In this document: one piece after another, positions 38,045 to 63,978 of the stretch
Position numbering within the stretch: the stretch's first letter is position 1
How the letters are laid out: each line of letters starts with the position of its first letter
Source of the DNA: Alphaproteobacteria bacterium
GTDB taxonomy: Bacteria; Pseudomonadota; Alphaproteobacteria; UBA828
Assembly: GCA_963422645.2 (NCBI GenBank)
Contig: CAXXVO010000012.1
Coordinates: 235,873-299,872 of the forward strand
Direction: 5' to 3'
DNA length: 64,000 bases
The notes under the pieces: generated by a model
What the model saw: the letters and a program-made list of their open reading frames with translations, nothing else
The model's database searches: none
Told to the model about the DNA's origin: nothing
Position numbers and translations under genes: made by a program

Positions 38045-38170
38045 TCTATCCGACACCCTGACCCACTTGCGCCGGAATGCATGGACTTGCGCTCATCTGA
38101 TATAACTCATTGTAAATAATCTATATTTCCGATTTCCATGGCGCAGCTTGCCCCTTGCATTCCCGCCTCC

Positions 38171-38224: not shown

Positions 38225-38293
38225 GAAAATACCCGCATCTCGCAGCGATCCGATCCGCGCTCCGGCGACGGCCCCTGTCGCAGGAACCGGGAC

Positions 38294-39467: not shown

Positions 39468-40498
39468 ATGGCAAGGCTCGACAGCGCGACGATCTCGCGG
39501 CGGACCGTGGAGGCGCTCCCGGTCGGGGACCGGGAAGCGGTCTATTGGGACTCCGAGCTTCAGGGCTTCGGCGTGAGGGTCTATCCGTCGGGTTCCAGGG
39601 TCTATCTCGTGCAGACGCGCGCGGACGGGAAGTCCCGCCGGCTGACCGTCGGCCGGCACGGGCTGATCACGGCGGAGCAGGCGCGGCGCAAGGCGGCGCA
39701 GGTCATCGCCGACATCAAGGCCGGCAACGAGCCGGTCCTCGGCAACGGCGCCTCGAAGTCCGATGCCGGCCCGACGGTCACCGAAGTGGCCGAGCGCTAC
39801 ATGCGGGAACACGTGATGGTGCGCTGCAAACCCGCCACGGTGCGGCAGTGTCGGCACATCCTCGACCGTCACCTGCTGCCGGCGGTGGGGGAGTTGCGTC
39901 TCGGCGAGATCGGGCGCGAGCGGGTATCCGCCCTGCACTACAGCCTGCACGAGACGCCGACAATGGCGAACCAGGTCGTCGACATGCTCTCGCGGCTGTT
40001 CTACATGGCCGAGGGTTGGGGTGTCGCCCCCGAGGGCGGCAATCCGTGCCGGTTCGTGAAGAAGTACAAGGAACGCAGTTGCGAGCGTTTCCTGTCGGAA
40101 GAGGAGTTCCGCCGTCTCGGGCGCGTGCTGGGCGAGGTCGAGGCGGAGGGCAAGGTCCATCCGAGCGCGGTGGCGGCGTTCCGCCTGCTGATGCTCACCG
40201 GCTGCCGGCGCAACGAGATCCTCACGCTGCGCTGGGAGGACGTGGATATCGAGGCGGGCGAGCTTCATCTGCGCGACGCCAAGACGGGCGCGCGGTCCGT
40301 CGCCCTGTCGCCGGCGGCGCAACGCGTGCTCGAGGCGCTGCCGCGTCTCCCCGACAATCCCTGGGTCATCGTCGGCGCGAAGCCGGGCGCGCGGCTGAGC
40401 AATCTCAACAACGCCTGGCTCGTCGTGCGGGCGCGGGCCGACCTCAAGGATGTGCGCATCCACGATCTCAGACACTCGTTCGCATCCCGCGCCCTGGC
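39468..40498 (+). pseudogene. Tyrosine integrase (pair 2, second), truncated by IS21
   Basis: Similarity stops after HDLRHSFASRALA exactly at the IS end; LLGH and the catalytic Tyr are lost. Confidence 0.88.
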
Positions 40499-40700
40499 TG
40501 TCAATCGGCTTTCAATACTGACCCCCGATCGGCGTGCAAAATTGACCCCCCTGAGTGGCACGGCGGAGGTTGTCCCGGTAGCCAATAGGGGGGACCCGCG
40601 CGGCTTCGTGTGGCGCCCTGCGCTACGCGGAGCGAAGCCGCGTGGGGGGTCCCTGTTGGCCCACCGGGGCAACCGGGCCGCAAGGGAGGCCGGCGGCGGG

Positions 40701-41429
40701 TCAGGAGCGGTTCTTGAAGCGCCAGCTCTCGTTGCCGGTCTCGATGATCTCGCAATGATGGGTGAGGCGATCGAGCAGCGCTGTGGTCATCTTGGGGTCG
40801 CCGAAGACGGATGGCCATTCGCCGAAGGCGAGGTTTGTGGTGATGACGATCGAGGTGCGCTCGTAGAGCCGGCTCATCAGATGGAAGAGCAGCTGCCCAC
40901 CGGCCTGGGCGAAGGGCAGGTAGCCGAGCTCGTCGAGGATGACGAAGTCGCGGCGGACGAGCTGGTCTGCAGTGCGGCCCTGGCGTCCGGCGCGAAGCTC
41001 GGCCTCGAGGAGGTTGACCAGGTCGACGACGTTGTAGCACCGGCCGCGCGCGCCCTTGCGGATGCAGGACCGCGCGATGGCGACGGCGAGATGGGTCTTG
41101 CCGGTACCGGTGCCGCCGACCAGCACGATGTTGCGTTTGCCCTCGAGGAAGCCGCCGCCGGCGAGCTCCTGGATCAGGGGCTCGTTGACCGGCGAGGCGG
41201 CGAAGTCGAAGTCGGCCAGCTCCTTGACCGTCGGCAGCTTGGCGGAGGCCATCTGGTACTTGATCGAGCGGGCCCTCTTGTCGGCGATCTCGACCTGCAG
41301 CAGCGTACCGATGATCTGTTGCACCGGATGGCGGCGCTTGAGCCCGTCGGCAAGGATGTCGTCGTAAGCGGCGCGCATACCTGCGAGCTTCAGCTGGGTC
41401 ATCATCTCCAGCACATCATGACGCTCCAT
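40701..41429 (-). CDS. istB: IS21 helper ATPase
   Basis: [29 protein letters not shown]. Confidence 0.95.
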
Positions 41430-42930
41430 GACCGGCCTCCCTCAGGCTGTCGTAGCGCTGACAGTCGGCTACCGGCTTGTGGCGAAGCTGCAGGCCCTCG
41501 GGCGTCGGGATGATTGCCGGCGGTGCCGGCTGGCGCTGCCGGGCGAGGATGTTGAGCACCACGTCGGCGCTGCAGGCACCGCAGTCGAGCGTCTCGGCAC
41601 AGGCCGCCTCAACCGCCTCCAGTCCGTCCTCCAGCACCGCCGCGAGCACCTTGACGAACTGCCGGTCGCCGTCGTCGTGGCCCGCGAGCCGGGTTCGCAG
41701 GCGGCCGAGCGCGTTGGGCAACTGCCAGTCCTTGAAGGGCGCGCCATTGCGTAGCGCGCCGGGCTTCCGCGTCAGGATCGGCACGTAATGCCACGGATCG
41801 TAGACGAACCGGCCGCGCCCGAAGCTGCGGGGGTGCTCGGCAACGGTCTCGCCGTCCTGGCGGATGACGATCCGATCGGCATAGGCCCGCACGTCCACCG
41901 GCCGGCCGACGGCGCGGGCCGCGACGCTGTACTGGTTGTTGTCGAAGCGCACCAGACAGGTCTTCGAGACCGACACCTCGCTGGCATGGAAGCCGTCGAA
42001 GGGGCCGCGATACGCCATCAGGAAGGGCTGCTCCTCCTCGAACACCTGCCACACCGTCTTGCCCGGGATTGTCGGATGCGGATGCTTCTTGGCGTCCTCG
42101 ATGCACCGATCCATCAGCCACTCGTTGATCTCGGCGTAGGAGCGGCCCCGCGGGATGGGCACGAACAGGCGGCCGCGAAGGTCACCCACCTGCTTCTCGA
42201 CCTGCCCCTTCTCCCAGCCAGCCCCTGGCGTGCACGCCACAGGCTCCACCAGATGGTGCGAGCACAGCTCCTGGAAGCGGCGGTTGTAGTCCCGCTTCTT
42301 GCCCACGAAGATCGTGCTCACCGCCGTCTTCATGTTGTCGTAGATGCCCCGCCGGCAGACCCCGCCGAAGAAGCGGAAGGCACGCTCGTGCGCCTCGAAG
42401 ACCATCTCCTGGCTCTCGCGGGGAAAGATCTGGACCAGATACATCCGGCTGTGGCACAGCCGCATGTGCGCCGCCTTCACCCTGGTCGTCGCGCCCGACA
42501 GACGCGCGTACTCGTGGCTCCAGTCGAACTGGTAGGCCTCGCCGGGATCGAAGATCAGCGGCACATAGGCCTGCGCCGGCGACAACAGCCGCCACCGGCG
42601 CCGCCAGGCCCTGGCATAGCGGCGAACCGCGTCATAGCCGCCCTTGTAGCCCAGCGACACAAGGTCTTCATGAATCCGCAGAAGAGACAGCCGATCCTTG
42701 CGTGCCTTCTTCTCGTTGGCCTTCAGCTGGCGCTCAAGCTCCTCCACCCACAGCCCAAGCTTCGGCATCGGCTGGATCTTGCGCTCGTAGCTGTGCGAGG
42801 TCGCATCGCCCCGCACCACCTTGCGTATCGTGTTCTTGGAAACCCTCAAATCCCGGGCGAGCTTCTTGATCGGAACGCCCTTCACCAGATGATCCCGACG
42901 GATCTTCGCGATCGTTTCCACAACCAGCAT
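41416..42930 (-). CDS. istA: IS21 transposase
   Basis: HTH N-terminus, [30 protein letters not shown]. Confidence 0.95.
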
Positions 42931-43049
42931 CTCCCCCACCACCCCGTCCGTCCAAACGACGAGGTGTGTTCATGGACACAAATCCAAGGGGGTCAATTTT
43001 GGACGCCGATCACCCCCAATAGGGGGTCACTTTTCCACGCTTAACAACA

Positions 43050-45898: not shown

Positions 45899-46922
45899 GC
45901 AGGCATTCCAGAACCTCTCGCCCGACGACAGGCGCGACGCTCTTGAGGTGGCGGAGCGAGGCGGCAGCCGCAAGGCGCATCTTCTGGAGAAGGACGTCTG
46001 GGTCGTCGCAACGCTCGGCGTTTTGTTCGACGCGCCGTTCGCCGAACACCTGACCTTCAAGGGCGGCACGTCGCTGTCGAAGGTGTGGCGCGCGATCCGC
46101 CGTTTCTCGGAAGATGTCGACGTCACCTACGACATCCGCGCCTTCGCGTCGGACCTGGTGGCCGGCGCTGGTGACGAAGCGCTTCCGCCGACACGCAGCC
46201 AGGAGAAGCACTGGACGCGAGCTATTCGTGGCCGTCTCGCACAATGGGTCCGGGACGAGGCCTGCCTCATTGTTGACGAAGGCCTCTCCGATGCCGGATT
46301 CGTGGCAAGGTGCAGAGTGGAAGCGGAGCGTCTCTACGTCGCGTACGAACCGTTGTTCGAGACAAGCGGCTTTGTCGCCCCGGAAGTCATCGTCGAGTTC
46401 GGCGCACGGTCCACGGGTGAACCGCGCAAGGCGATGCCGATCGTGTGCGATGCGGCGGCATACCTGCCTGATCTTGTCTTTCCGCAGACGCACCCCACCG
46501 TCATGCTGGCGAAGCGGACCTTCTGGGAAAAAGCGACCGCGATTCACGTCTTCTGCCGCCAGGAGCGGCGCCGGGGCGAGCGTCTGTCGCGGCACTGGCA
46601 CGATCTCGCACGCCTCGACGAGGCGGGCATTGCCGATAACGCCTTGGCCGATCGCGCGCTCGCGCTTTCGGTTGCCCGCCACAAAGCGATGTTCTTCACC
46701 GAGAACGACGCCCGCGGCGACCGGATCGACTATGAAGCGGCGGTTTCGGGGCACCTTCAGCTCGTTCCCTCCGGCGCCGCCCACGCCGTGCTCGCGGACG
46801 ACTACGCGAGAATGCTGGCCGACGGCATGCTGATCGACGAGGAAGAGCTGTTCGATACGCTGATGGAGCGATGCGCCGCGATCGAGGCGCGGGCCAACGG
46901 ATCGCGGTTAGAGAGCGGATAA
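45891..46922 (+). CDS. AbiEii/AbiGii nucleotidyltransferase toxin
   Basis: EKD.WV, FKGGTSLSK, RFSEDVD, RTFWEK, SRHWHD. Confidence 0.9.
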   Translation: MAEQAFQNLSPDDRRDALEVAERGGSRKAHLLEKDVWVVATLGVLFDAPFAEHLTFKGGTSLSKVWRAIRRFSEDVDVTYDIRAFASDLVAGAGDEALPPTRSQEKHWTRAIRGRLAQWVRDEACLIVDEGLSDAGFVARCRVEAERLYVAYEPLFETSGFVAPEVIVEFGARSTGEPRKAMPIVCDAAAYLPDLVFPQTHPTVMLAKRTFWEKATAIHVFCRQERRRGERLSRHWHDLARLDEAGIADNALADRALALSVARHKAMFFTENDARGDRIDYEAAVSGHLQLVPSGAAHAVLADDYARMLADGMLIDEEELFDTLMERCAAIEARANGSRLESG

Positions 46923-49900
46923 TGGACGTATTCGCCTTTCGTGAAGAACTTGTCGCCGAGTACGAGCGGTTTTCCCGGAGCTTCACCAGCATTCGGGCCG
47001 AGGACATCTCCCGCGAGGTCGATGCGGCCTATGCCGGAGGCCGTTTCTGGCCCGCCCCGCTCATCCAGTTGAATCCGAACTTCGAGCCCGGCGGATGGGT
47101 GGACGACCTCGTCGCCGACGGCGCTCTCGACGCGGAATGCCAGAGGATTTTCCGGCTCAAGCACGCCAGCGACACTTTCGGCGAACGCCTTCTGCTGCAT
47201 CGGCATCAAGCCGACGCCATCGAGATCGCCAAACGAAACGAGAGCTACGTGCTGACGACCGGCACCGGCTCCGGCAAATCGCTCGCCTACTTCATCCCCA
47301 TCGTCGACGATGTGTTGCGACGGAAACGCGCCGGCGACGCCGGCAGGGGCATCGCCGCCATCGTCGTCTACCCGATGAACGCGCTTTGCAACAGCCAGCG
47401 CGAAGAGCTGGAGAAGTATCTGCGGCTCGGCTATGGCGAAGGCGGGGAGCCGGTCACCTTCGCTCGCTACACCGGACAGGAATCGCAGGAGGAACGCGAG
47501 CGGATCGCGAAGAACCCTCCCGACATTCTCCTCACCAACTACGTCATGCTCGAACTGCTCATGACGCGGTTCCACGAGACCGACAAGGCGGTCCGCGAAC
47601 ACGCTGCGGGTCTCCGGTTCCTGGTGCTGGACGAGTTGCACACCTACCGCGGGCGGCAGGGCGCCGACGTCGCCATGCTGGTACGCCGCGTGCGGGAACG
47701 GTTCAACGAGCGGCTTCTCTGTATCGGTACTTCCGCGACCATGGTCTCGGAAGGATCGCCGGAAGATCGGAACGTCGCCGTTGCGCGCATTGCGAGCCGC
47801 CTGTTTGGCGCCAAGGTCGATCCCGGCAACGTCGTTTCCGAGACGCTGAGGCCCGTAACCTACCGCGATGCGGGCGCAAACGGACCCGATCTGCGGGCCG
47901 CCATCGAACGAGGGATACCGGCGACCCCCACCCACGACGAGTTGTCCACACATCCTGTGGCGGCCTGGGTGGAGCGCAAGCTGGGTCTGGAAGAGCGCGG
48001 CGACAGGTTTGAGCGGATTTCTCGGCCCCTGACGATACTCGAAGCCTCGGACGCTCTCGCGGGAGACAGCGGTCTCGACGCGAAGCGCTGCCGCGACTAT
48101 CTCGCGAACTTCCTGTTGACGGCCCACCGGAGTCGGAACGAGCGAGGCCAGAGTTTCTTCGCGTTCCGGCTGCATCAGTTCATCAGCGGCGCCTGGAACG
48201 CCTACTCGACACTCGAAGCACCGGGCGAGCGGTATCTCACCCTGCACGGTCAGCAGTTCAAGCCCGGAGACCGCAACCGGCCTCTCTATTCACTCTGCTT
48301 CTGCCGGGCATGCGGTCAGGAATACCTGCCCGTCTGGGCAAGGTTGGCCGGCAAGCAGCCGCAGGCGTTCGCCCCCCGCGATCTCTCCGAACGCTCCAAC
48401 GACGACGAAGACATCCAGTTCGGCTATCTCATGCCCGACCCTTCGGGAATGTTCGATCCTGCGGATACTGAAAACCAGTACCCGGAGGACTGGCTCGAGT
48501 TCCGTGGCGACGAGCCCCGGCTCAAATCCCATTTCCGCCGCTACCGTCCCCACGGCGTGCGGGTGGATACCCAAGGCGGTGTCGCCGCGGATGGATTGCC
48601 CGCGTGGTTCATTCCGGGATCGTTCCGTTTCTGTCAGAACCCGGATTGCGACGCGCACTACGACGGCAGTATGCGGAGCGACATGACCAAGCTCTCCGGT
48701 CTGTCGAGCGAGGGCCGAAGCTCCGCGACAACCGTTCTGGCGCTGTCCTCGCTCAAGCATCTCATCGGCGCCGACCTCGACGAGCGCACCAAGAAGCTCT
48801 TGGCCTTCACCGACAACCGTCAGGACGCCAGCCTCCAAGCGGGCCATTTCAACGACTTCGTACAGATCCTGCTGCTGCGCGGTGCGCTGCTTGCGGCAAT
48901 TCGAGGCGATGTCGGGGGACTTCTGACCGACGACCTCCTGACCCAGGAGGTGCTCGCCCGCCTGCGCCTGGATGCAGCGGACTACGCGGCCAATCCCGAG
49001 GCCAAGGGCATCAAGGCCCAGAACACGCTCAGGGCGCTGCGCGACGTTCTCGGCTACCGGCTCTACTTCGATCTGCAGCGCGGCTGGCGCATCACCAACC
49101 CGAACCTCGAACAGTTGAAGCTGCTGGAGATCGGCTACCGGGGTCTCATGGACTGCTGCGAGGACGAGGAGGAATGGTGCGGAGTGCATCCCCTGCTCGG
49201 TTCCATCGCGCCAGAGCGCCGTTTCGAGATCGTCCGGGAGCTTCTGGAGCGCATGCGCAGAGCGCTCTGCATCAAGACGATCTATCTGGATCCGAACTTT
49301 CAGGAACAGATACGCAATCGAAGCTTCAACGAGCTGAAGGAGCCTTGGGGCCTGTCGGAGGACGAACGCCTGTTCTCCCACGCTTTCATGGTTGCCCGGC
49401 CGGGCGGCCGTGGGCGTCGGACGGACTATCGCGTTCTGAATATCTCTCATCGGTCCGCGTTCGGCCGGAAGGTGAAGTCCCAGGCGTTCTGGGGACAGGA
49501 CAATCCCTGCTATCCATCCAGGTTCGACGAGGACGTCTACAACGACGTGGTGGACGACATCCTGCGCGTGCTGACGACCTACGGCTATGTCGAGCCCACA
49601 GACCTCGACGGCGACCGCATCGGTTTCCGCATCGACAGTTCGGTTCTCGAATGGCGCATCGCCGACGACACCGGTGCGGACCAGGGTCCAGCCAATGCGT
49701 TCTTCCGCGACCTCTACGAGAATGTGGCGGGACTCCTCGACAGCGACGATCGCCTTCTTCACCAACTGGAGGCGCGAGAACACACCGCGCAGGTGGATGC
49801 AGAAGCCCGTGAGGAACGAGAACTGCGTTTCCGCAAGGGACTGTCAGGCGAGCGCGTCGTCGACGGCAAGGTGGAACCGGCCGGACTTCCCGTCCTCTTC

Positions 49901-52183
49901 TGCTCGCCGACCATGGAACTCGGTGTCGACATCTCCACGCTGAACGCGGTCTACATGCGCAATGTGCCGCCGACGCCCGCGAATTACGCCCAGCGAAGCG
50001 GACGCGCAGGGCGCAGCGGCCAGCCGGCGCTGGTTGTCACCTACTGCGCGGCGAGGTCGCCGCACGACCAGTATTTCTTCTCCGATCCGACCCGCATGGT
50101 AGCCGGCGCGGTCAATCCTCCGAACATCGACCTCGCCAATGAAGACCTGATCCGCAGCCATTTGCAGGCCGTCTGGCTCTCGGAAACGGGCGTCATGCTC
50201 GGCTCTTCCGTACGCGATGTGCTCGATCGGGAGAAGCCCGACAAGTTGCCTCTGCACGACGAGGTCGCGGAACAGATCGGCAGCGCCCGGGCCGTGGCCG
50301 AGGCGCAACGACGCGGGCAACGCATTCTCGCGACGCTCGGGTCCGACCTCTCTGGGCGGGCCGCGCCCTGGTACACGGACATTTGGCTCAAGAGCGCGAC
50401 GAACTCCGCGGACCGCCGCTTCGATGACGCTTTCGGCCGGTGGCGCTCGCTCTTCCGCGCGACAACGAACCAGATGAAGTTCGCCAACGATGTCGTCAAC
50501 AACGCTGCAGCAACCGAACGGGAGCGCCGGGAAGCCAAGGCGCGCTACGACGAAGCGTTTACCCAGCAGAACCTGCTGCTCCACAGCAAACCGACCATGA
50601 ACTCCGACTTCTACACCTACCGCTACCTGGCCGCCGAGGGGTTCCTGCCGGGCTACAACTTCCCGCGCCTGCCGCTGATGGCCTTCGTTCCCGGCCGGCG
50701 CGAGAAGGTGGCCCGGGATTCATTTCTGAGCCGGCCGCGGTTCCTCGGACTCACCGAGTTCGGCCCTCAATCCATCATCTACCACGAGGGCAGCACCTAT
50801 CGCGTACGGCGCGCCATTCTATCCAGTCGCGGCGATGAGTCCGGGGTGACCGCATCGGCCAGTCTCCCGGTGCAGGCCGCCCGCATCTGTCCCGCGTGCG
50901 GCTATGGACACTTCGGCGATCAGAAGGAGTACGAGCGCTGCGTCAGCTGCGACGAACGTCTCGACAGCGGGCGCGCGATCTTGAACCTCTACCGCATCGA
51001 ACAGGTGTCCACCCAGAGGGCGAACCGCATCACCTCGGACGAGGAAGAACGCCAGCGCCAGGGTTACGAGATGGTCACGACGCTTCGCTTCAGCGAAGAG
51101 AACGGCCGGGCGCGGGTCGAGGGCGTCGCCGTCGAGGAGAACGGCGAGACGCTGCTGGAACTGCGCTACGGCCCGGCCGCCACGCTGTGGCGCATCAATC
51201 TCGGGTGGCGCCGCCGCGAGGAGAAGTCGGTCTACGGCTTCAGCGTCGATGCCAACACCGGCGAATGGACCCGCGACTCGCAGGCGCCCACCGACGCGGA
51301 AGACGATAGCGTGCGTGACGGCAAAACCGTCGAGCGTATCACGCCATACGTCGAAGACACCCGCAACGTCCTCGTTCTCCGTCCGGCGATCGACCTGACC
51401 GAGACGGCCATGGTGTCGCTGCAATACGCAATCAAGCGCGGCATCGAGCAGGAGTTCCAGCTGGAGGAAGCGGAGCTCGCCGCCGAGCCGCTCCCCGACC
51501 GCGACGACCGGAGCACGATCCTGTTCTACGAGGCCGCCGAAGGCGGCGCGGGCGTCCTCACCCGCCTGGCCAGCGACCCCGGCGCGCTGGCGCGGATCGC
51601 CCGCAAGGCGCTCGAAGTCTGCCATTACGCATCGCGGTCGGGAGACTGGACCGGATGGAATGACCTCGACAATCGCGACGACGAATGCGAAGCCGGCTGC
51701 TATCGATGTCTGCTCAGCTACTACAACCAGCCGGACCATCCGCAGATCGACCGGCAGGACGAGGGCATGCTCGACCTGCTCTGCCGGTTGACGCGCGGCG
51801 AACGCAGCAGCCTCGACCATACGCCGGGTGCCGGCGACAGCTTCGACGAGTTGTGGAACATCGCCGGCTCGAGTCTGGAAAAGGACTGGCTGACATACAT
51901 CAGGAAGAACGGATACCGCCTGCCCGACCGGGGACAGCCCTACCTCGAGGACTTCGATACCCGGCCCGACTTCGCGTATACCGGCGATCAGACCCTGATC
52001 TATATCGACGGACCTCACCATCGCGCGCAGCGCAAAGGAACCGAAGACGCCGAGGTGACCCGGCGGCTCGAAGACGCGGGATTCACGGTCGTGCGATTCA
52101 CCGAGGACAGCGCGTCATGGGATCCTGTCTTCGACGAGTACGGCTGGGTCTTCGCGCCGGGCACGACATCGGCAGCCGAATAA
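46922..52183 (+). CDS. Large DEAD/DEAH (YprA/DrmAB-like) helicase with DUF1998 Zn domain and C-terminal DUF559-like endonuclease
   Basis: TGTGSGKS, YPMNAL, DELHTY, TSAT, SPTMELGVDI, QRSGRAGR, C..GCYRCLLSYYNQ, RPDF...IYIDGPHH. Confidence 0.88.
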   Translation: MDVFAFREELVAEYERFSRSFTSIRAEDISREVDAAYAGGRFWPAPLIQLNPNFEPGGWVDDLVADGALDAECQRIFRLKHASDTFGERLLLHRHQADAIEIAKRNESYVLTTGTGSGKSLAYFIPIVDDVLRRKRAGDAGRGIAAIVVYPMNALCNSQREELEKYLRLGYGEGGEPVTFARYTGQESQEERERIAKNPPDILLTNYVMLELLMTRFHETDKAVREHAAGLRFLVLDELHTYRGRQGADVAMLVRRVRERFNERLLCIGTSATMVSEGSPEDRNVAVARIASRLFGAKVDPGNVVSETLRPVTYRDAGANGPDLRAAIERGIPATPTHDELSTHPVAAWVERKLGLEERGDRFERISRPLTILEASDALAGDSGLDAKRCRDYLANFLLTAHRSRNERGQSFFAFRLHQFISGAWNAYSTLEAPGERYLTLHGQQFKPGDRNRPLYSLCFCRACGQEYLPVWARLAGKQPQAFAPRDLSERSNDDEDIQFGYLMPDPSGMFDPADTENQYPEDWLEFRGDEPRLKSHFRRYRPHGVRVDTQGGVAADGLPAWFIPGSFRFCQNPDCDAHYDGSMRSDMTKLSGLSSEGRSSATTVLALSSLKHLIGADLDERTKKLLAFTDNRQDASLQAGHFNDFVQILLLRGALLAAIRGDVGGLLTDDLLTQEVLARLRLDAADYAANPEAKGIKAQNTLRALRDVLGYRLYFDLQRGWRITNPNLEQLKLLEIGYRGLMDCCEDEEEWCGVHPLLGSIAPERRFEIVRELLERMRRALCIKTIYLDPNFQEQIRNRSFNELKEPWGLSEDERLFSHAFMVARPGGRGRRTDYRVLNISHRSAFGRKVKSQAFWGQDNPCYPSRFDEDVYNDVVDDILRVLTTYGYVEPTDLDGDRIGFRIDSSVLEWRIADDTGADQGPANAFFRDLYENVAGLLDSDDRLLHQLEAREHTAQVDAEAREERELRFRKGLSGERVVDGKVEPAGLPVLFCSPTMELGVDISTLNAVYMRNVPPTPANYAQRSGRAGRSGQPALVVTYCAARSPHDQYFFSDPTRMVAGAVNPPNIDLANEDLIRSHLQAVWLSETGVMLGSSVRDVLDREKPDKLPLHDEVAEQIGSARAVAEAQRRGQRILATLGSDLSGRAAPWYTDIWLKSATNSADRRFDDAFGRWRSLFRATTNQMKFANDVVNNAAATERERREAKARYDEAFTQQNLLLHSKPTMNSDFYTYRYLAAEGFLPGYNFPRLPLMAFVPGRREKVARDSFLSRPRFLGLTEFGPQSIIYHEGSTYRVRRAILSSRGDESGVTASASLPVQAARICPACGYGHFGDQKEYERCVSCDERLDSGRAILNLYRIEQVSTQRANRITSDEEERQRQGYEMVTTLRFSEENGRARVEGVAVEENGETLLELRYGPAATLWRINLGWRRREEKSVYGFSVDANTGEWTRDSQAPTDAEDDSVRDGKTVERITPYVEDTRNVLVLRPAIDLTETAMVSLQYAIKRGIEQEFQLEEAELAAEPLPDRDDRSTILFYEAAEGGAGVLTRLASDPGALARIARKALEVCHYASRSGDWTGWNDLDNRDDECEAGCYRCLLSYYNQPDHPQIDRQDEGMLDLLCRLTRGERSSLDHTPGAGDSFDELWNIAGSSLEKDWLTYIRKNGYRLPDRGQPYLEDFDTRPDFAYTGDQTLIYIDGPHHRAQRKGTEDAEVTRRLEDAGFTVVRFTEDSASWDPVFDEYGWVFAPGTTSAAE

Positions 52184-52201
52184 GGAGCGGAAAAGAGGTC
52201 G

Positions 52202-55064
52202 ATGACAACGGCGATTGCATTCAAACCGGGGGATCTGGTCCGGGCGCGCCAGCGCGAGTGGGTGGTTCTTCCGGAGACGCGCGACGACCTCCTGAAGCTC
52301 CGGCCGCTCGGCGGCGCGGAGGACGATGCGACCGTCATCTATCTCCCGCTCGAAACCGAGTCGCCCGTTCCCGCGACGTTCGATCTCCCCAACCCGGACT
52401 TGCCCGGCTCCCGGGAGGCGGCGCTGCTGCTGCGCGACGCGCTTCGCCTGAAACTCCGGGCCGGCGCCGGACCGTTTCGCAGCTTCGGCAACCTCAATGT
52501 CGAACCGCGCGCCTATCAGCTGGTGCCCCTGCTGATGGCCCTCAAGCTGGACACCGTCCGGTTGCTCGTCGCCGACGACGTCGGCATCGGCAAGACCATC
52601 GAGGCGGGTCTCATCGCGCGAGAATTGCTCGACCGCGGCGAGATCGAACGGTTCACCGTCATCTGTCCGCCGCATCTGTGCGAACAGTGGCAACAGGAGC
52701 TCGCGGAGAAGTTCGGCATCGACGCCGAGGTTGTCCGCACCGGCACGGCCACCCGCCTGGAACGGGGACTGCGGCCCGACGAATCGGTGTTCGAGGCCCA
52801 TCCGTTCACGGTGGTGTCCCTCGACTACATCAAGTCGGATCGGCGCCGCAGCGACTTTCTGCGCGCCTGTCCGGAGTTCGTCATCGTCGACGAGGCCCAC
52901 ACCTGCGTGCAGTCGAACACGAACACGCGCCACCAGCGTTACCGCCTGCTCAAGGGTCTCGCCGAAAGCGAGCCGCAGCGAAGCATGGTGTTCCTGACCG
53001 CCACCCCGCATTCGGGCGACGACACCGCCTTCCACAATCTGCTGGGCCTGCTGGAGCCGAAGTTTGCCGAACTGGCCGACACGCCCGAAGGCGATGCACG
53101 CCGACGCTTGCGCGACGAGCTCGCGCTGCAGTTCGTGCAGCGCCGGCGCGGCGACATCGCCGAATGGAAGGACGACACCGCCTTCCCCGTCCGCGAAAGC
53201 CGGGAAGCGACCTACCGGCTGACGGGCGACTGGGGCCGGCTCTTCGACGACGTGCTCGCCTATGCCAGGACCATGGTCCGGCGTGCGGAGAGCGGGACGA
53301 AGCTGCAGCAACGGATGTCCTGGTGGGCCGCGCTCGCGTTGTTGCGCTGCGTTTCCTCCAGCCCGGCGGCCGCCTCTCTGGCCCTGCGAACCCGACTCCA
53401 GGCCACCGAAGGCGAGACCGAACAGGCGCAGATCGCGAATCTGGATCGGGCGGCAGGCGAATCCGTGATGGACGAAACGGCCGACGACTCGCTCGGCCTC
53501 ACCGAGAGCGTGCCCGCCGGCACCGTCGAAAAGGCGGAGGATGCCGCGGCCCTGCGCGAACTCATCGAACGGGCGGATGCTCTGCGCGGCGCCCGGAACG
53601 ATCCCAAACTCAAGACCCTGGTCGAAGAGGTGAGACACCTTGTGCAGGACGGGTTCCGGCCGGTCGTGTTCTGCCGCTACATCGCCACCGCGCACTATGT
53701 CGGCGCTGAACTGAAAAAAAACCCTGACCGCCGGGAATACGCATGTCGCCGTGGTCACCGGAGAGCTCACCTCCGATCAGCGCGAAGAACGCGTCGAGGC
53801 GCTTGGGGACCTCGACGAACAAGTCGCGCCCGTGTTGGTGGCCACCGACTGTCTGTCCGAAGGCGTCAACCTTCAGAGCTGGTTCGACGCGGTGGTCCAC
53901 TACGACCTCACCTGGAATCCGACCCGCCATGAGCAACGCGAGGGCCGCGCGGATCGTTTCGGGCAAACCTCCCGGACCGTTCGCGCGCTGATGCTCTACG
54001 GCGAGAACAATCCCGTCGACGGCGCCGTGCTTCGCGTGATCCTCCGCAAGGCCGAGAAGATCAGGAAGGAGCTCGGCGTCTCCGTGCCCTTGCCGGCGGA
54101 CAACAACAAGGTCGTCGACGCCATCATGAGAGCCGTTCTCCTTCACGGCAGCGACCATTCCCACGCTACCCAGATGGCGCTGGATTTCGGGCAGGCCGAG
54201 ACCGAGGTGGACGATGCCTGGCAGACGGCCGGGAACAGGATGACACGCACGGTCTTCGCCCAGCGACGTCTGACGCCCGACGACGTGCTGCCCGAGTGGC
54301 GAAAGGCCGTATCCGTACTTGGCGGGCCCGACGATGTCGCCCGCTTCGTGCGCCTGTCCGCCGAACGCCTGGGGGCGCCGCTCGATGCGCGGGACGGCTA
54401 TTACCGATTGCCTGTGGCCCACTTCCCGAAACCGCTTCAGGACCGTCTCGACGCCATCGGGTTCACAGCATCCGCGAAAATCGCGTTCACGCGACCCGCG
54501 CCCGTGGGCGCGACCTGCATCCACCGCGCTCATCCGCTGGTCGCAGCACTTGCGGACTATGTGGCAGAACAAGCGCTCGACACCGACAGACCGGCGGTCG
54601 GCGCCCGCACCGGCGCCATCTTCACCAGGGACATTGGGAGCCGCACCGTGCTCTACCTGTTGCGCCTGCGCAGTCAACTCCAGGTGGAACGGCGAGGCCC
54701 GGACGGCCGGTATTCGCCGCTCAAATCGCTTCTGGCCGAGGAATGCCTCGGAATCGCCGTCCGAGGCGGCGCCACGCCCGAACTGTTGACCGAGGACGAT
54801 GCATTGTCGCTTCTCTCACTGGAACCAGGGCGCAATATGCCGGACGGGCAGAAGACCCGCCTCGTACGGCAGGCTCTCGAAGCGCTGCCGGACCTGGAAG
54901 ACACATTCGAGCGTGTGGCCCACGAGCAGGCCCGCCGGTTGCTCGCGGATCATCGCCGCGTCCGCGAGGCCAGCGACGCCAGGGGCCTGCGCTACAACGT
55001 CATCCCGGCCCTGCCGATCGACAAGATCGGAGTCTACGTCCTCATGCCCATGGCAAGTTTCTAG
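52202..55064 (+). CDS. SNF2-family helicase (DrmD-like); one frameshift at the A8 run near 53714-53721
   Basis: ADDVGIGKT, DEAH, TATPH in ORF 52202-53932; SEGVNLQ and EQREGRADRFGQ in ORF 53751-55064. Confidence 0.85.
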
Positions 55065-55066
55065 CC

Positions 55067-58000
55067 GTGGCGAGCGCGCGAAGAAGTCGAGGGTTCACGG
55101 CCCTGAAGATCGAAGGCGGTATCCTGCCGCCAGAGTTCCTTCAGGCTGTCGCCGCGCTCGATGCGCCCCGCCAGACAGGCGCCGACTATGGGCTGTCGAA
55201 ATCGCTCGCGGTCAAGGAAGAACTCGCCCGGTACTGGCGCATCGCCAGCGATCTCCACGGGCGCTATGCCGAGCGCCGCCCTCGCCAGGACCTCCGGGCG
55301 ACGCAGGTCGGCGTCGAGGATTGGCTCGTCCCTTTCCTGCGCTCGGTGCTTGGCTATGACGACCTGACCGCCGCGGACAGTGTCGTGCGGGAGGATCGCG
55401 TCTTCAGCTTGACGCACCGCGCCTGTGGCGGCGCCGTGCCTCTCCTGCTCGTGACCCATGAATTCGACCTCGACAGGGCCGATCCCCGTTTCGGGCACGA
55501 TGGCCGCCGGCAGGCGCCCCACGGCATGATGCAGGAGTATCTCAACGCCGAGGACGACGCGTTGTGGGGAATGGTTTCCAACGGCTCGAAACTTCGCATC
55601 CTGCGGGACAATCCGAGCCTGACACGGCCCTCCTGCATCGAGGCCGACCTCGACCTCGTCTTTGCGGAGGAGCTTTACCCGGACTTTGCCGCGCTCTGGC
55701 TCGTCGCCCATGCCACCCGCCTCCGGCCCGCCGCCGACAAGCCGTCGAGCTGCATCATCGAATCCTGGCGGGCCAAGGCGCACGAAACCGGTGAGCGCGT
55801 CCGGGAGAATCTCCGCGACGGGGTCACCGATTCCCTGCGTCGGATCGGCAACGGTTTCCTGCAGCATCCATCGAACGTCAAACTGCGCGAAGCCCTCGAA
55901 GGCGGTGCGCTCACACCGGAGCGCTATTTCCAGCAACTCCTTCGCCTCGTGTACCGCCTGCTCTTTCTCTTCACGGCCGAGGAGCGCAATCTGCTTCATA
56001 CGCCAGAGGCTACGGACGAACAGCGCGCCGTGTTCGCGGACGGCTACGCCTTGTCCCGACTGCGCGAACGCGCCCTACGCCGCCGCCACTACGACCGGAA
56101 CCAGGATCTCTGGCGGGGTCTCCAGATCACCTTCCGGGCGCTCGCCGAGAGCGCTCCCGGCCTTGGCCTGCCCGCGCTTGGCGGTCTGTTCCGGGCCGAC
56201 CGGTGTCCCGACCTCGACGACGCGGGCATCGCCAACGAACACCTGCTCGAAGCCGTTCGCACCCTTGCCTTCTTCCGGTCGGATCGAAGCCTCGCCCGCA
56301 TCAATTACAGGGACATGGATACCGAGGAACTCGGCTCCGTCTACGAGAGCCTGCTGGAGCTTCGGCCCGTCATCGACGTGGACGCTTCGCCGTGGACATT
56401 CACCTTCACCGGCGACGGTAACGGAGAGCGAGCCAAGGGATCCGATCGCAAGCTGACCGGCTCCTATTACACGCCGCCCAGCCTCGTGAGCGAACTGGTC
56501 AAGTCGACCCTCGATCCGGTTGTCGCCGAGGCCATTGCTGCACGCCCGGAAGACCCGCGCGCCGCGATCCTCGCTCTGAGAATCGTCGACCCGGCCTGCG
56601 GTTCGGGGCATTTCCTGCTGGCGGCGGCACGCCGTCTCGCCGCCGAGATCGCCCGCATCGAATCGAGCGCCGACACGTCGGACGAAGCCACGCGACAGCA
56701 CGCACTGCGCGAGGTGGTCCAGCATTGCATCTACGGCGTAGACCGCAATCCGCTCGCCGTCGAGCTCTGCAAGACCGCGCTCTGGATGGAGACGATCGAG
56801 CCCGGCAAGCCGCTCACATTCCTCGACTCCCACATCCTTCGGGGAGACAGCCTGGTCGGCATTCTCGATCCCGAGATCATGGCGAGTGGCATTCCCGGTG
56901 CCGCCTACAAGCCATTGACTGGCGATAACAAGGCCGTGTGCCGGGATATCAAGAAGCGAAACCGGCAGCCGAAGCAGGAGGATCTGTTCGACCAGGACGC
57001 CGTGCTGGAAGTCGCCGTGGCAGGCATCGACCTCGACGCCATGCCCGAGGAAACGCTGGATGAGGTCGAGCACAAGCGCGCCGCTTGGAAAGCCGCGTTG
57101 CGCGACGACACCCGGACCCGTGAAGCTCTGCGCGCCAATCTCTTCTCGGGAGCGTACTTCGCACCGAAGACGCACGATACGCTGCAGATCGTGCCCCAGA
57201 CCCAGGACCTCCAACGGCTGGGAAGCGATGTGCCTCGACGCCGCGGCGTCGAGGCCCTCGTGCGGATGCTGGCGGGCACGCACGATTTCTTTCACTGGCA
57301 TCTGGCATTCGCCGAGATCATGCAGGCCGGCGGTTTCGATGCCGTTCTCGGCAACCCGCCCTGGGAAGTCTCTCAACTCAATGAAGAAGAGTACTTCGCC
57401 ATCAAGGCCCCAAGTATCGCTAGCTTGTCCGGTGCATCGCGAAAACGTGCGATTGCTCAACTCGAAAATTCTGATCCACAGCTCTGGTCCGAGTATCAAA
57501 GCGCAAGCCATGGTTTCAATGCGCGAAACGGTTTCTGTCGGGGCAGCGGTCGCTACTCACTGAGCACTTATGGAAAGCTCAACAGCTATGCTCTCTTTGC
57601 AGAAACATTCATGCAGCTCATCAGTCCGCGAGGCCGTGCCGGCATGATCGTGCCAACCGGTATTGCCACGGACCACTCCACCAAGGCGTTCTTCGAGCAC
57701 ATCGTTACCCGGCAGAGGCTCGTCAGCCTGTTCGACTTCGAGAACCGGGAGAAGGTGTTTCCGGGGATAGACAGCCGGATCAAGTTCAGTCTTCTCACAC
57801 TGAGTGGCAAGGACAACCCGGTTCCCGAAGCTGAGTTCGCATTCTTCCTGCACCAGGGCGGAGCAGTTGAAGGAAGCCGAGCGACGTTTCACGCTGTCCA
57901 CGGACGACTTCTTGCTGTTCAACCCCAACACGAGGACATGCCCGATATTCCGTACCCGGCGCGACATGGAGATTGCGCGCAAGATGTACCGGCGTGCTGG

Positions 58001-59321
58001 TGTCCTGTGGAAGGAAGCAAGAACCGGTGAGGCTGAAGAGAATCCTTGGGGAATCAGCTTCATGCAGATGTTCAACATGACGAGCGACTCCGGGCTTTTC
58101 CTGCACGCGTGCCGAACTGACCGACGATGGGTGGGAACTCGACGATAATGTGTTCGTGCGTGGCGACGAACGCTATCTGCCGTTGTACGAGGCAAAGCTG
58201 TTCCATCAGTATGACCACAGATTCGCCACGTTCGAGGGCGTCTCCGGCAGAGATATCAGGAACGGCAATGCCCGACCGATGTCGGCAGGTGAAAAAATCC
58301 GATCCCCGCACGGTCGCCGTTCCGCGATACTGGGTCCCGGAAATGGAAGTCGCGGAAAGACTTGACATAGACAGAGAGACCGCACAATTGTTAGCCGAGC
58401 CGAGCCGAGCCGAGCCGAGCCGAGCCGAGCCGAGCCGTATTCGACACTCTTACGGAGCTGGCTCGCAACTCGGTCTCAGGAAGATCACCCGCGCGACCGA
58501 CGAGAGAACAGGAATCTTCGCTATGATCCCAGCTGTGGGATTGAGCGATTCCGGAACAACGATAATCGTTGGATCGTCGTATTCAGGGACATTTCGAGCC
58601 CAACGAATCAGCGAACAGCAATTTACACGATCATACGAGGCACAGCCGTGAGCAATAAGGCACCCGTTCTGGATATTGACTACGGGACTTGGCTTCAGGC
58701 TTTCCGAGGAATTACCAACTCGACAAACGAACGGACTGTCCTCACAGACAATGTGCCGAGAAGCGGTGTAGGAAATAGTGCTCCTGTCATCGATTACGAG
58801 AACGCACGGGTTGTGGCTTCGACCCTGGTCCTCTCCAACATGAACAGCCTTCCTCTTGACTGGGCAGCCCGCTTCTCCGTGGGAGGCGTCAATATGAATT
58901 TCTTTATTGTCAAGCAACTGCCTGTTCTGCCGCCGGCGGCATATCTAAAGAACAGCACATGCGGACGTCCGTGGGTTCAGTTGATCGTTCCGCGTGTCCT
59001 GGAATTGACCTATACATCTGAGGAAATGGCCGGCTTTGCAAGTGGTATCGGTTATCACGGCCCGCCCTTTCCCTGGAACGAGGAGCGCCGTCATTTTCCT
59101 CCAGGTCGGAACTTGACGCGATCTTCGCCCATATGTACGGACTCAGTCGCCTTGAACTGGAATGGATCTTGGATGCACCCGCGCCGAGCTCGTCCTTCCC
59201 ATCCTTGAAATTAAGCGAAACCAGAGAGTTCGGTGAGTATCGTACACAGCGTCATGTGCTCCAGGCTTTCCACTCACTCGAGCGTGGAAAAGATCTAAAT
59301 CTTTCCGGAGACACCGTGTAG
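55067..59321 (+). CDS. Eco57I/type IIG-like adenine methyltransferase (DrmMI-like) with several frameshifts in the 3' part
   Basis: ELGSVYESLL, GSYYTP, DPACGSGHFL, GNPPW; C-terminal pieces NPNTRTCPIFR, YLPLYEAK, PRYWV, KQLPVLPP, YGLSRLELEWILD are spread over different frames. Confidence 0.82.
58393..58437 (+). repeat. Simple sequence repeat (AGCCG)9 within the methyltransferase
   Basis: Nine perfect pentamer units counted directly. Confidence 0.97.
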
Positions 59322-59453
59322 AGACATCCGCCGGAACCGTGCTGAAGGGATTGATCTCGATGTAGGCACCATTGATATAAAGACGATAGCGCAACTCTTT
59401 ATCATCATGATCTCGCAGACTCTGCGAAGACAACCTGTCGAGTCCGCGCAATG

Positions 59454-60221
59454 TCAATGCTTGGAGAATCTCGGTTGGCCGGTATCGTCTTCAGCCTTCA
59501 ATCCTTTGATATAATGACGGATACGCCTCATCAATGGCACCGGGACAGAAAACTGCCCGGCCTCGTGCCTTTCGAGGCAATAGCCCAAAATCGTATGCAG
59601 ATCGTGACGCAGGGTATCCGGCGTGTGGTGCCGATGAAGATCGCGCAATAGCGAGCCGTGGCATTTTCGAACCTTGCGCCGCGGCCGCACGGGCAGTCGT
59701 GATGGCCACGGTATCCATGCTCATATAGAAAGAGGATGACAGCCAGTGCCGCAACCTCGTCATCCAGATTCAACGTGTCGACATAGTATCGGACGATGCC
59801 TTCCGCACCATGCCTCTGCTCGCCAAAAGGATGCTCACCGTCCTTTTGCCAGTGGCCAATAACCGTAGAAATAGGGAATGACGAGGTTGTTCACGAACCC
59901 CAACAAGGAAGGCTGTCGAGAGAATATCAGACGCTCCTCGATCGGAACGGCCAAGCAGAGCGTCCCATCCGTATAGATATGCTCGTAGCTACCGTCGATT
60001 TTTCCTCCCGTTTCCTGGACGCGCGGCAAGCTGCCCGGATACTGGCCGGGGATCAACAGTTCGATCTCGAAGCTGGTCTTTATCGAAGCATGTCCGTCAG
60101 CCGACGCCTCGAACGGCAACGGCCCGGACAGGACAGTCTCCTGTTCCGTCTCCGCAACCAGTGCCAACTCCTTGTGACTCTCCCGCAGTTCCGCGATCTG
60201 AGCGGCCAGCTCCTGCTTCAT
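59454..60221 (-). CDS. E2 (ubiquitin-conjugating-like) protein with SEC-C-type motif, CBASS accessory; frameshifted
   Basis: YPGSLPRVQETGG, HIYTDGTLCL; PFGE..HG..G, CPCG and RKCHG in other frames. Confidence 0.72.
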
Positions 60222-62687: not shown

Positions 62688-62716
62688 TTGACATTATATG
62701 TTCGATCATGCAAGAT
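62688..62716 (+). promoter_or_regulatory. Sigma70-like promoter candidate in the divergent CBASS/XRE intergenic region
   Basis: TTGACA-N17-CAAGAT, about 30 bp before the XRE start. Confidence 0.4.
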
Positions 62717-62747
62717 GCCACGGATGGCAGCGGGAGGAGATCGAACG

Positions 62748-63978
62748 ATGGAGGCAGACGAGCTCGGACGCAGATTGCGGATGGCGCGCGAGGATCGAGG
62801 TCTCAGTCAACAGGCGGTAGCCGACGCATTGGGCTTGCCACGGACCGCTGTTACGCAATTGGAGGCGGGCAAGCGCTCTGTGTCGACTCTCGAGCTATCG
62901 AGGTTTTCGGAGCTTTACCTCTGCCCCGTCGCGGACTTCCTGCAGGAAGGCGTACGAGACGAGGATGTGTTGGTGCACTGTACCGTGTCGCGCCGGGATT
63001 GGAACAGGACCCTTCCACGCATGAGCAGGTTGCCCGCTGCGTCAGTCTGTGCCGTGAGGGGCGTGAGGCTGGAGAATCTGCTTGGCGCCAATCCCCGGTC
63101 TGGCCCGCCGAGCTATGAGATGCGTGTGCCGCGCTCTTCGGGAGAGGCCGTGGCGCAAGGAGAACAGACCGCTGAACAGGAGCGGCGCCGACTTGGCATC
63201 GGCACCGCACCAAATCGCGGATGTCTCCGAATTGATTGCATCCCAGGACATCTGGGCCTCAGGCGTCGAGCTTCCGAACGGAATGTCGGGTCTGTTTTGC
63301 GACACCCAAGCATCGGATCGGCCATTCTCGTGAACTCATCGCATCCGAGAGGCCGAAAGCGATTCTCCTATGCGCACGAGTATGCCCATGCCCTGCTCGA
63401 CCGGGATCGGAACGTCACGGTTTCCAGTACCGATAACTCGTCCGAAATGGTGGAACGGCGTGCGAACGCGTTCGCCGCTGCCGTCCTCATGCCGAGGAAC
63501 GGTATCTATGAGGCATTGCGAAGCCTCGACAAAGGCTCCCGAGCCGGCAGGAGCAGACCGTCTTCGATGCCGCAAGCGGTGGCCACATCGAGGCGAAACT
63601 TCGTTCTCCGGCGGGTTCGCAACGCATTACCTGCAATGACATCGCCATGCTCGCACATCATTTTGGCGTGAGCTACCAGCCGCCCTCTATCGCCTGAAGA
63701 GCCTTCGGTACATCTCCCATCCGGAATCCCGGGAGCTTCTGGAACAGGAGGATTTCGGACGGGAATACCTGAAGGCCCTCGACATGTTCAGCGATGTCGG
63801 CGAACGCGAACAGCGTCGGTACTGGGACCGCGAACTCCGCGGCGAGATCGCTCATCTCGCCATCGAAGCATACCGCCGCGACGAGATTTCGCGCGGCCGC
63901 ATCCTGGAACTCAGCCGGACGCTCGGCATCGACGGCGATATTCTGCTTCGTCTGGCCGAAGCGACGCGCCGGGAGTGA
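62748..63978 (+). CDS. XRE-family HTH fused to ImmA/IrrE Zn-metallopeptidase; frameshifted
   Basis: LGRRLRMARE..GLSQQAVA...QLEAGKR HTH; RFSYAHEYAH, ERRANAFAA, AYRRDEISRGR. Confidence 0.85.

Follow-up and report, generated by a model that had tools for sequence, protein, structure and literature searches.

A 64,000-nucleotide stretch of DNA from an Alphaproteobacteria bacterium of the UBA828 lineage (assembly GCA_963422645.2, contig CAXXVO010000012.1, positions 235,873 to 299,872), analysed at its full length and hereafter called the window, carries on its + strand a gene for a PglX/DrmMI-like, ArmB-like N6-adenine methylase (55067..59321; GTG start; 1414 amino acids with eight repeat units). 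Within this gene a perfect (AGCCG)9 slippage tract lies on the + strand at 58393-58437, beginning at about codon 1108 of 1414. It is preceded by the PRYWV motif (58322-58336, + strand, frame 2), the final element conserved in the N-terminal half of the target-recognition domain (TRD) ahead of the tract, and is followed by three diverged copies of one motif, here called cassettes 1, 2 and 3, the first in frame 2 and the other two in frame 1. This arrangement had been described in a sequence-only reading of the window, made by a model and taken by it for a candidate specificity switch, and was confirmed by the bases themselves, by Tandem Repeats Finder and by a script. The tract is the only repeat of a five-base unit with at least five copies in the 5,906,602-base genome (67% G+C). 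Long hexanucleotide repeats, whose units preserve the frame, occur elsewhere in this genome, namely (ACACCG)15 twice and (GTCGGT)/(GGTGTC) in 5-11 copies (contig positions C8:261449-261538, C8:355005-355094, C12:51350-51490, C15:41901-41966 and C15:383552-383593).

Results

Cassettes and reading frames of the methylase gene

Cassette 1 (58463..58564, + strand) is read in window frame 2, which is frame +1 relative to the C-terminal domain, and cassettes 2 (58570..58665) and 3 (58690..58785), also on the + strand, are read in window frame 1, which is frame 0 of that domain. In the full-length form cassette 2 is predicted to be disordered or spare; the full-length model puts cassette 3 where the recognition domain has its canonical beta-hairpin. 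The rest of the recognition domain and a C-terminal helical region follow (58786..59321, + strand, natural stop 59319-59321) and contain the motif FIVKQLP (58903-58923, + strand) that served as an anchor for comparisons between loci. The three cassettes have the core R-x-I-T-x-x-T-[N/D]-x-R-T in common, with Arg codons at 58478 (frame 2), 58585 and 58705 (both frame 1), exactly where the earlier reading had placed them. A strict form of the core, R.[IV]...T[DN].RT, matched three times in the 11.8 million residues of the six-frame translated genome, and all three matches are the cassettes. Read in frame 1, the bases of cassette 1 make up a stop-free spacer of the full-length form, which makes this a dual-coding stretch. 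Tandem Repeats Finder at score 30 found the pentanucleotide tract and did not register the cassettes as repeats, so the cassettes are old, diverged copies. Recent gene conversion or homology-driven deletion between them was dropped as a candidate because the copies are too diverged at the DNA level, and the cassette array resolved by deletion that the sequence-only reading had envisaged is likewise disfavoured by this divergence and by a cassette spacing that is conserved across loci.

As assembled, the methylase gene shows five frame changes between 57.8 and 59.3 kb, its last 1.5 kb. Logan contigs of four public runs from two studies were aligned to window positions 52000-60000. Five bases of the gene (57856, 58102, 58292, 59099 and 59104) are extra in the window and absent from the contigs of all four runs; the same holds for 53714 in the neighbouring gene and for 59856, and all four runs have one extra C behind 59678 that is missing from the window. 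The contexts of these indels are short homopolymer runs. Over 52000-60000 this amounts to about one single-base indel per kb (seven extra bases and one missing), so reading frames elsewhere in the window and in the genome need care. From 58445 to 59009 there are no gaps and no other letters between the window and the contigs of the four runs, and the 107-base spacing of cassettes 1 and 2 recurs in relatives from other phyla; the missing base between these cassettes that had been suspected from the sequence thus lost its ground. The contigs end at 58386 and resume at 58445, and none bridges the tract.

When the corrected gene is read from the GTG at 55067, the tract is its sole discontinuity. 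With 5, 8 or 11 units the product has 1409, 1414 or 1419 amino acids, the normal C-terminus of the family and the stop at 59319; frame 1, entered with 8 or 11 units, is open from 58369. With 6, 9 or 12 units translation stops at 58649 (58649-58651), and with 7, 10 or 13 units at 58524 (58524-58526). The arithmetic given earlier for 8, 9, 10 and 11 units was right in each case. That the nine-unit gene reads cassette 1 also held, but not as part of a full-length enzyme, for the nine-unit product ends 57 codons after the Arg of this cassette.

The methylase gene is also a mosaic. Its identity to locus L025, from a Thalassobaculaceae metagenome-assembled genome, is 97% over 55921-57400, 87% over 57578-58437 and 73% after the tract. 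About 180 bases at 57.40-57.58 kb align to none of the relatives, and G+C drops from about 66% to about 55% from 57.5 kb onward. The identity steps, the unaligned stretch and the fall in G+C suggest module exchange, possibly at the tract.

The tract recurs at one site in relatives of many phyla

A search with the frame-1 piece against all representative proteins gave 2289 relatives, most of which align only from cassette 3 onward and thus possess one cassette. Two cassettes, both in frame, are present in the nearest relatives, and in several the cassette-1 stretch is translated in the other frame within one open reading frame (ORF). Within the same genus, the orthologue in genome G011 (71% identity) has five AGCCG units and an intact frame of 1461 amino acids, and that in genome G014 is broken over two contigs at its AGCCG tract, with at least 16 units at one end and 25+8 (at least 33) at the other.

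Eighty loci from species-representative genomes were then compared in coordinates anchored on FIVKQLP, which five of them lack. A tract was scored where a PRYW motif was followed by a repeat within 200 bases, and unit lengths of 3, 6, 9 and 12 were included in the search. Long simple repeats were found about 70-80 bases after PRYWV in 48 loci, with units AGCCG, AGACC, GACAG, ACCCG, AGCC, CGAC, ACCG, CAGA, ACCGAGA, ATCGACAG, poly-C, AG and others. The unit was of 4 bases in 17 loci, 5 in 16, 1 in 5, 7 in 5, 8 in 3 and 2 in 2; none of the 48 had a unit of 3, 6, 9 or 12 bases. Relative to the C-terminal frame the upstream frame was in state 0, +1 and +2 in 11, 19 and 18 of these loci, respectively. 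The upstream frame was intact in 44/48, the downstream sequence was open from the tract in 44/48 and the natural stop was present in 45/48. All seven distant single-cassette members of this set are in frame and have no tract.

Eighty metagenome loci formed a second set, from which 35 lacking the anchor motif were not counted. Here too tracts were confined to multi-cassette loci, one of them with a 10-base unit. None of the 20 single-cassette loci had a tract; 16 were in frame, one was not and three had no PRYW motif. An exact-match scan of metagenome contigs for the 33-base 5′ flank of the tract in the window gave no match.

The tract changes faster than its flanks. Loci L029 and L034 are about 96% identical in the flanks and have AGCC nine and 19 times, with different frame states, and L040 and L071, whose upstream flanks are 92% identical, differ in the unit itself. 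The gene thus has the marks of a simple sequence repeat (SSR) contingency locus: a perfect repeat in frame whose unit is not a multiple of three, full-length and truncated outcomes depending on unit number, and close relatives that differ in tract length and have mixed frame states (9, 5 and at least 33 units within the genus). A slippage switch with three frame outcomes, as put forward from the sequence, is borne out by the unit-by-unit readings and by the same-site tracts of relatives in all three frame states.

In a quick maximum-likelihood tree (midpoint root; support by the SH-like approximate likelihood ratio test only) the tract-bearing loci form one clade of 57 rows with support 93, and its sister is a tract-less clade of cyanobacteria and Chloroflexota. 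The tract clade spans at least nine phyla, Chloroflexota, Acidobacteriota, Gemmatimonadota, Rhodothermota, Pseudomonadota, Latescibacterota, Actinomycetota, Binatota and Thermodesulfobacteriota. Four loci (L113 and L114 from metagenomes, L058 and L037) have staggered cassettes out of frame with no detectable tract; in these the tract may have decayed, or the contig may have been cut there.

Other genes of the same genus (loci L013, L014, L016, L017, L018 and L019; genomes G013, G009, G006 and G008) also have AGCCG tracts, with 12 to 61 units, near the 5′ ends of ORFs that run for 1275 to 1855 amino acids within the loci and encode Calx-beta, fibronectin type III and Ig-like domains. Their products are probably giant surface proteins subject to phase variation, so the AGCCG unit would be used at several contingency loci in this genus.

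Frame-staggered cassettes and selection on cassette 1

Two multi-cassette layouts were found among the relatives. Layout I comprises about 38 loci including the window; relative to the anchor its frame +1 cassette lies at -425 and its two frame-0 cassettes at -318 and -198. Downstream of the tract no stop interrupts frame 0 before the natural one; frame +1 is closed at -254 and frame +2 at -379 or -385. Layout II, which forms its own clade, has one cassette in each frame, at -415/-418 (+2), -305 (+1) and -192 (0), and stops at -307 and -128.

Codon positions were analysed in 19 layout-I loci with exact spacing, one of 20 having been dropped because its contig starts too near. The entropy of the cassette-1 stretch by codon position was 1.273/0.835/0.467, which is the position 3, 1, 2 pattern of frame +1. 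The frame-0 pattern held for cassette 2 (0.959/0.548/1.318), for cassette 3 and for the downstream region, and cassette B of layout II showed that of frame +1 (1.119/0.499/0.385). Over the 19 loci the cassette-1 stretch has 64% nucleotide identity, and its amino acid identity reaches 56% in frame +1, as against 33% in frame 0 and 41% in frame +2. Stops are absent from it in frames 0 and +1 (0/19 each) and present in frame +2 in 19/19 loci.

Core positions 5 and 8 covary strictly, N going with N and R with D. Cassette 1 has the NN pair in 15 and RD in 19 of 39 loci, with no mixed pair and five other combinations; the canonical cassette has NN in 27 and RD in 18 of 57, again with no mixed pair and 12 others. 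Over 173 cassettes the number of mixed pairs was zero, which points to direct contact between the side chains at these two positions within the hairpin loop. Across loci each cassette type is marked by conserved residues of its own, 'KIT..ERTG' in cassette 1, 'DI..PTNQRT' in cassette 2 and 'GIT..NERT' in cassette 3, whereas the R and T of 'ERT' show little or no variation in 89 sequences, and the core is among the most conserved parts of the family. Because cassette 1 has the codon pattern of frame +1, an amino acid identity above that of the other frames, no stops and unmixed covariation, it is by these measures a selected coding element in its own frame and not a relic.

Stops of the alternative frames overlap start codons

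The stop that ends the cassette-1 frame with nine units lies in GTGA at 58648..58651 on the + strand and overlaps a GTG of the C-terminal frame, with GAGG seven bases upstream, which makes it a candidate restart site. Similarly, the stop of the third frame (10 units) lies in ATGA at 58523..58526 on the + strand and overlaps an ATG of the cassette-1 frame. Among the layout-I loci the first stop of frame +1 overlaps a frame-0 ATG or GTG ([AG]TGA) in 31/38, and the first stop of frame +2 overlaps a frame +1 ATG or GTG in 31/38 as well. In layout II the corresponding overlaps are ATGA in 7/9 loci and TTGA in 6/9. Elsewhere in these genes 36.5% of the +1-frame stops (89/244) have such an overlap, which serves as the background. 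At each of the two sites, 13 of the 38 loci have a Shine-Dalgarno-like core ahead of the restart codon, as against 8.4% of control windows. These figures are suggestive of termination-reinitiation at the overlaps.

Predicted structure of the region around the tract

The cassettes and the C-terminal region gave no Pfam match even at E values up to 1 (TaqI_C included) and none in NCBIfam. A sequence search of the PDB with the last 500 or so residues gave no match, and a PDB profile search matched the methylase core only (positions 14-252 of 980), so the region was placed by fold comparison only. AlphaFold2 (AF2) modelled the last 600 amino acids of the full-length G011 protein with a mean predicted local distance difference test score (pLDDT) of 88.2 and a predicted template modelling score of 0.87. 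In this model cassette 3 forms strands with pLDDT 86-97 (equivalent residues 395-430), and the tract peptide, the spacer and cassette 2 have pLDDT 33-76, cassette 2 alone 37-43. Its fold matches M.BseCI (Z 15.6, 341 residues aligned, root-mean-square deviation 4.4), CamA (Z 15.0), M.TaqI (Z 13), PglX/BrxX (Z 12.3-12.6) and MmeI (Z 10.3); Foldseek was also run. The matched ranges cross the tract, extending from model residues 5-8 to 476-576, so that on the model the tract lies in a loop in the middle of the TRD, with the cassette as the first hairpin of the second half of this domain.

For a natural short isoform in the +1 state, that of locus L027, the model places cassette 1 on the N-terminal part (pLDDT 73-93) and leaves disordered only the tail that is out of frame. 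When this N-chain was paired with the putative restart C-fragment, the predicted complex scored 0.86, and the best of three controls scored 0.00. The mark applied for a complex is reached by 116/157 solved complexes and 2/215 mismatched pairs, counts that hold roughly here since alignments of our own were used. At least 77% of the contacts are shared by the runs, and the partner pLDDT is at least 74. The confidently predicted interface includes cassette-1 residues 334, 346-352, 354, 365 and 367-368 of the N-chain and no residue from the first 53 of the C-fragment, which hold its cassette 3. This prediction supports, and does not show, that the L027 N-chain binds the restart fragment.

The defence island around the methylase gene

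The methylase matches Pfam Eco57I (1.5e-20) and N6_Mtase (7.6e-9), and also MmeI_Mtase. Its motifs DPACGSG (residue 508) and NPPW (residue 763) lie in unaltered window sequence, and together the S-adenosylmethionine-binding and NPPW motifs and the TaqI/CamA/MmeI-type recognition fold predicted for the G011 orthologue mark it as a gamma-class N6-adenine methylase. Two genes precede it on the + strand. The first (46871..52183, 1770 amino acids) encodes a YprA-like DExH helicase with a DUF1998/MZB zinc domain and a C-terminal DUF559 (Vsr-like) domain, and is ArmC-like; it has Pfam matches to DEAD (1.2e-24), MZB (2.9e-12), Helicase_C (2.2e-9) and DUF559 (2.7e-4), and its best PADLOC matches are DruE, the PADLOC 2023 set having no ARMADA model. 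The second (52202..55064) encodes an SNF2/RapA/BrxHII/DrmD-like helicase (Pfam SNF2-rel_dom 1.5e-12) that is split by the extra assembly base 53714, and its corrected frame of 953 amino acids is intact.

ARMADA, the disARM-related antiviral defense array, is described in its preprint as having in type I the gene order YprA-like, then BrxHII-like, then PglX-like (bioRxiv 10.1101/2025.09.15.676423). The order found here is the same: a YprA-family DExH helicase with DUF1998/MZB, then a BrxHII/RapA-like helicase and a PglX-like methylase, all on the + strand, and the Vsr-type C-terminal domain and the integrases and transposase beside the island are further likenesses. By domains and gene order the methylase is thus assigned to an ARMADA type I (DISARM-related) island. 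The assignment of the recognition domain to a DISARM-related system in the sequence-only reading agrees with these domains, the gene order and the fold matches, and becomes more precise.

The island falls outside the better-known systems. As regards DISARM class 1, helicase and DUF1998 are fused in one protein, and no phospholipase D domain was found there or in the scanned neighbours. The two pieces of the second helicase matched NCBIfam DISARM_DrmD at positions 3-529 and 540-813 with 216 and 92.7 bits, below the cutoff of 610, and the PADLOC DrmMI match of the methylase (3.4e-74) spans only profile positions 548-881 of 1347, so that both proteins are related to DrmD and DrmMI and are not equivalogs. 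The best NCBIfam model for BREX PglX was BREX_2_MTaseX with 45.9 bits against a cutoff of 400. From its likeness in sequence and fold the methylase may work like PglX without being a BREX PglX member.

Upstream of the defence genes lie two adjacent tyrosine-integrase genes (38138-39463 and 39468-41513), a Mu-type transposase/rve gene on the minus strand (41416-42942) and a dip in G+C to 47.5% at 36-37 kb. An integrated mobile island is the probable carrier of the defence genes. Downstream of the island there is a gene for an HTH_XRE and Peptidase_M78 (ImmA/IrrE-like) fusion (62688-63671), and several ORFs at 59.8-63.1 kb have no family match. The end of the window is the end of the contig.

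Discussion

A contingency repeat at a fixed site of the TRD, three frame outcomes and selection on more than one of these outcomes make up the well-supported core of the results. Beyond this core, the explanation that we favour and regard as probable, if only fairly so, is that slippage switches the enzyme between a fused form and defined forms that are truncated or split. The tract would be a hypermutable slippage site in a loop in the middle of the TRD, at which gain or loss of one five-base unit moves translation among three frames. In the C-terminal frame (5, 8 or 11 units) one chain of about 1414 amino acids would be made, with the cassette-1 bases as spacer and cassette 3 as hairpin. In frame +1 (6, 9 or 12 units, nine being the assembled number) the chain would end with cassette 1, a spare hairpin that caps the N-terminal part, and stop at the GTGA. 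In frame +2 (7, 10 or 13 units) it would stop early on the ATGA at 58523-58526. Since each of the two stops shares bases with a start codon, translation may resume there and give the C-terminal piece as a chain of its own, so that the alternatives would be fused versus split or truncated and not simply on versus off. A truncated chain capped by its own hairpin could stay folded, keep partners engaged and avoid self-damage. Our guess is that truncated and split forms lose or weaken DNA recognition, and hence defence, while they stay folded and safe for the cell. Switching in populations, restart and these roles of the truncated and split forms are what we infer beyond the core.

More tentatively, and with rather less confidence than doubt, the gene may be regarded as multiplexed by reading frame. 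The hairpin would be encoded two to three times in different frames chained by stop-start overlaps, the repeat would heritably toggle between a fused and a split or differently capped methylase of different activity, and the whole would have spread horizontally over at least nine phyla with its repeat unit repeatedly replaced. Ribosomal frameshifting and transcriptional slippage were set aside as frame changers for units of 4 to 8 bases; transcriptional slippage is possible in relatives with poly-C/G tracts.

Several points weigh against the switch. The contigs of all four runs break at the tract, and switching within a population is deduced from comparison between genomes; the unit number nine is taken from an assembly that has an indel about once per kb in this region, and no contig spans the tract. 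To some extent the Val/Met of the cassette motif dictates the NTGA overlap, the loci are related so that the counts of 31/38 overstate independence, and restart is read from sequence features alone. The score of the predicted complex may be a memory of intramolecular contacts in the solved single chains of CamA, M.TaqI and PglX, and the placement of cassette 1 by AF2 leans on alignment homology to the canonical cassette. The conservation of cassette 2 in frame 0 sits oddly with its predicted disorder. Finally, if all frames gave a working enzyme, selection for the tract would have no evident cause.

Of the rival explanations, the least improbable, although we consider it unlikely, is a frame-tolerant design, in which the tract is kept as a variable surface loop or a recombination junction and every length yields all parts of the enzyme, fused or split. 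Such a design would explain why the cassette is present in two frames in layout I and in all three in layout II, why conserved NTGA overlaps link frame +2 to +1 and +1 to 0, and why the split halves are predicted to assemble, subject to the caveats of memory and alignment. The steps of identity to L025, one of them at the tract, also fit module exchange there. Long perfect tracts whose units are never a multiple of three are, however, the signature of selection for frame changes; units of 3 or 6 bases would serve loop length equally well and were found at none of the 48 loci, and the third frame of layout I is without a complete cassette.

A plain on/off switch, in which only the full-length frame matters, the off-frame cassette is left over from a tandem duplication and the truncated products are without effect, appears improbable. 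It would be the standard behaviour of SSR-bearing methylase genes and has been published for pglX (PMC4365076, PMC11341690). The ARMADA preprint reports that ArmB is needed for defence by ARMADA II and that an NPPW mutant of ArmB abolishes protection (bioRxiv 10.1101/2025.09.15.676423), so that loss of the TRD should switch defence off; ARMADA II was tested in E. coli (PMC13463889). A relic would decay, though, and cassette 1 keeps the coding pattern of its own frame, with an amino acid identity of 56% at a nucleotide identity of 64% and no stops in 19 loci. Its covariation is perfect, its spacing is fixed over at least nine phyla, and layout II retains one cassette in each of the three frames.

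The change of DNA specificity that the sequence-only reading had proposed, with cassettes 1, 2 and 3 conferring different specificities and the tract changing the motif that is methylated and defended, likewise has little probability. The cassettes are predicted to lie inside the TRD fold and each type has its own conserved residues across loci; moreover, the specificity residues of PglX and MmeI are reported to lie late in the TRD (PMC11341690), near the cassettes by a rough proportional mapping that is an estimate. But residues that set specificity should vary, and the near-invariant R and T of 'ERT' make the core a poor candidate for a specificity determinant, and the form ending in cassette 1 is without the rest of the domain on the same chain. 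A decayed pseudogene or assembly artefact, which the five frame changes and the split neighbour might suggest, is largely refuted and has a very slight chance of being right, since all frame changes but that of the tract lie at short homopolymers and are absent from the contigs of all four runs, the corrected gene and its neighbour are intact, and the remaining break is a layout seen in dozens of intact relatives.

The favoured switch between fused and truncated or split forms has its closest precedent in pglX. Phase variation of pglX through a G tract has been published (PMC4365076) and is said to be common in pglX genes (PMC4365076, PMC11341690). As there, a simple repeat lies within the ORF of a PglX-type adenine methylase and changes in its length shift the frame, and the methylase would be one that methylation-based phage defence needs; the post-catalytic fold also matches that of PglX/BrxX. 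Unlike in phase-variable pglX, the tract lies late in the gene and within the recognition domain, its units are of 1 to 10 bases and differ between close relatives, and spare copies of the hairpin follow in other frames with stop-start overlaps, in a protein that is not a BREX PglX equivalog. The ARMADA preprint describes no tract and no ArmB with several cassettes, and the strings 'phase vari', 'slippage' and 'frameshift' have no occurrence in its text.

Phasevarions are controlled by SSR-switched mod genes of Type III and hsdM/hsdS genes of Type I systems, and the Type IIG gene cj0031 is switched in Campylobacter, as far as the abstracts tell (PMC5909438, PMC7383803, PMC4889913). They share with the present locus a repeat tract in a methylase or specificity gene and stochastic frame switching. 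Judged by the same abstracts, however, they are on/off systems of host-adapted pathogens with tracts mostly early in the gene, whereas the present tracts are found in uncultured environmental lineages of at least nine phyla, and copies of a domain element in alternative frames are not described in those abstracts. In Helicobacter canadensis, late poly-G tracts cause C-terminal phase variation (PMC2823697), so that a late repeat alters the C-terminal end and most of the protein is still expressed, as would be the case here. The alternative ends are there a few unselected residues, in contrast to the conserved copy of a domain element, predicted to be folded, that ends the chain here, and in the present locus a restart may yield the remainder of the protein as a second chain.

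Dual-coding frames and termination-reinitiation at ATGA overlaps are generally known. The locus resembles such genes in that one stretch of DNA is open, and apparently used, in two frames and in having an NTGA stop-start overlap. It differs from dual-coding genes in that the frame would be set by a heritable change in DNA length and not by the ribosome, and in that the two frames encode homologous copies in succession and not two unrelated proteins. Within the library searched, the literature offered no paper that treats repeat tracts in DISARM or ARMADA methylases, copies of a domain element staggered between frames, or phase variation among sponge symbionts. The basic phenomenon has its precedent in pglX; the frame-staggered cassettes appear to be new.

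Repeat-driven switching of defence methylases has been known mainly from pathogens and from pglX. Here the same strategy is met at one exact site of an ARMADA/DISARM-type methylase over many uncultured lineages, with the repeat unit reinvented many times, and the sequence behind the repeat seems, on the structure predictions, to be built so that more than one frame gives a folded, selected product. If the forms differ in activity, the switch would provide a compact, heritable trade-off of phage defence, self-methylation and gene uptake, and the gene would be a natural case of one shaped by evolution for reading in several frames. Annotation pipelines will call such genes pseudogenes, and the defence repertoires of these organisms are therefore undercounted.

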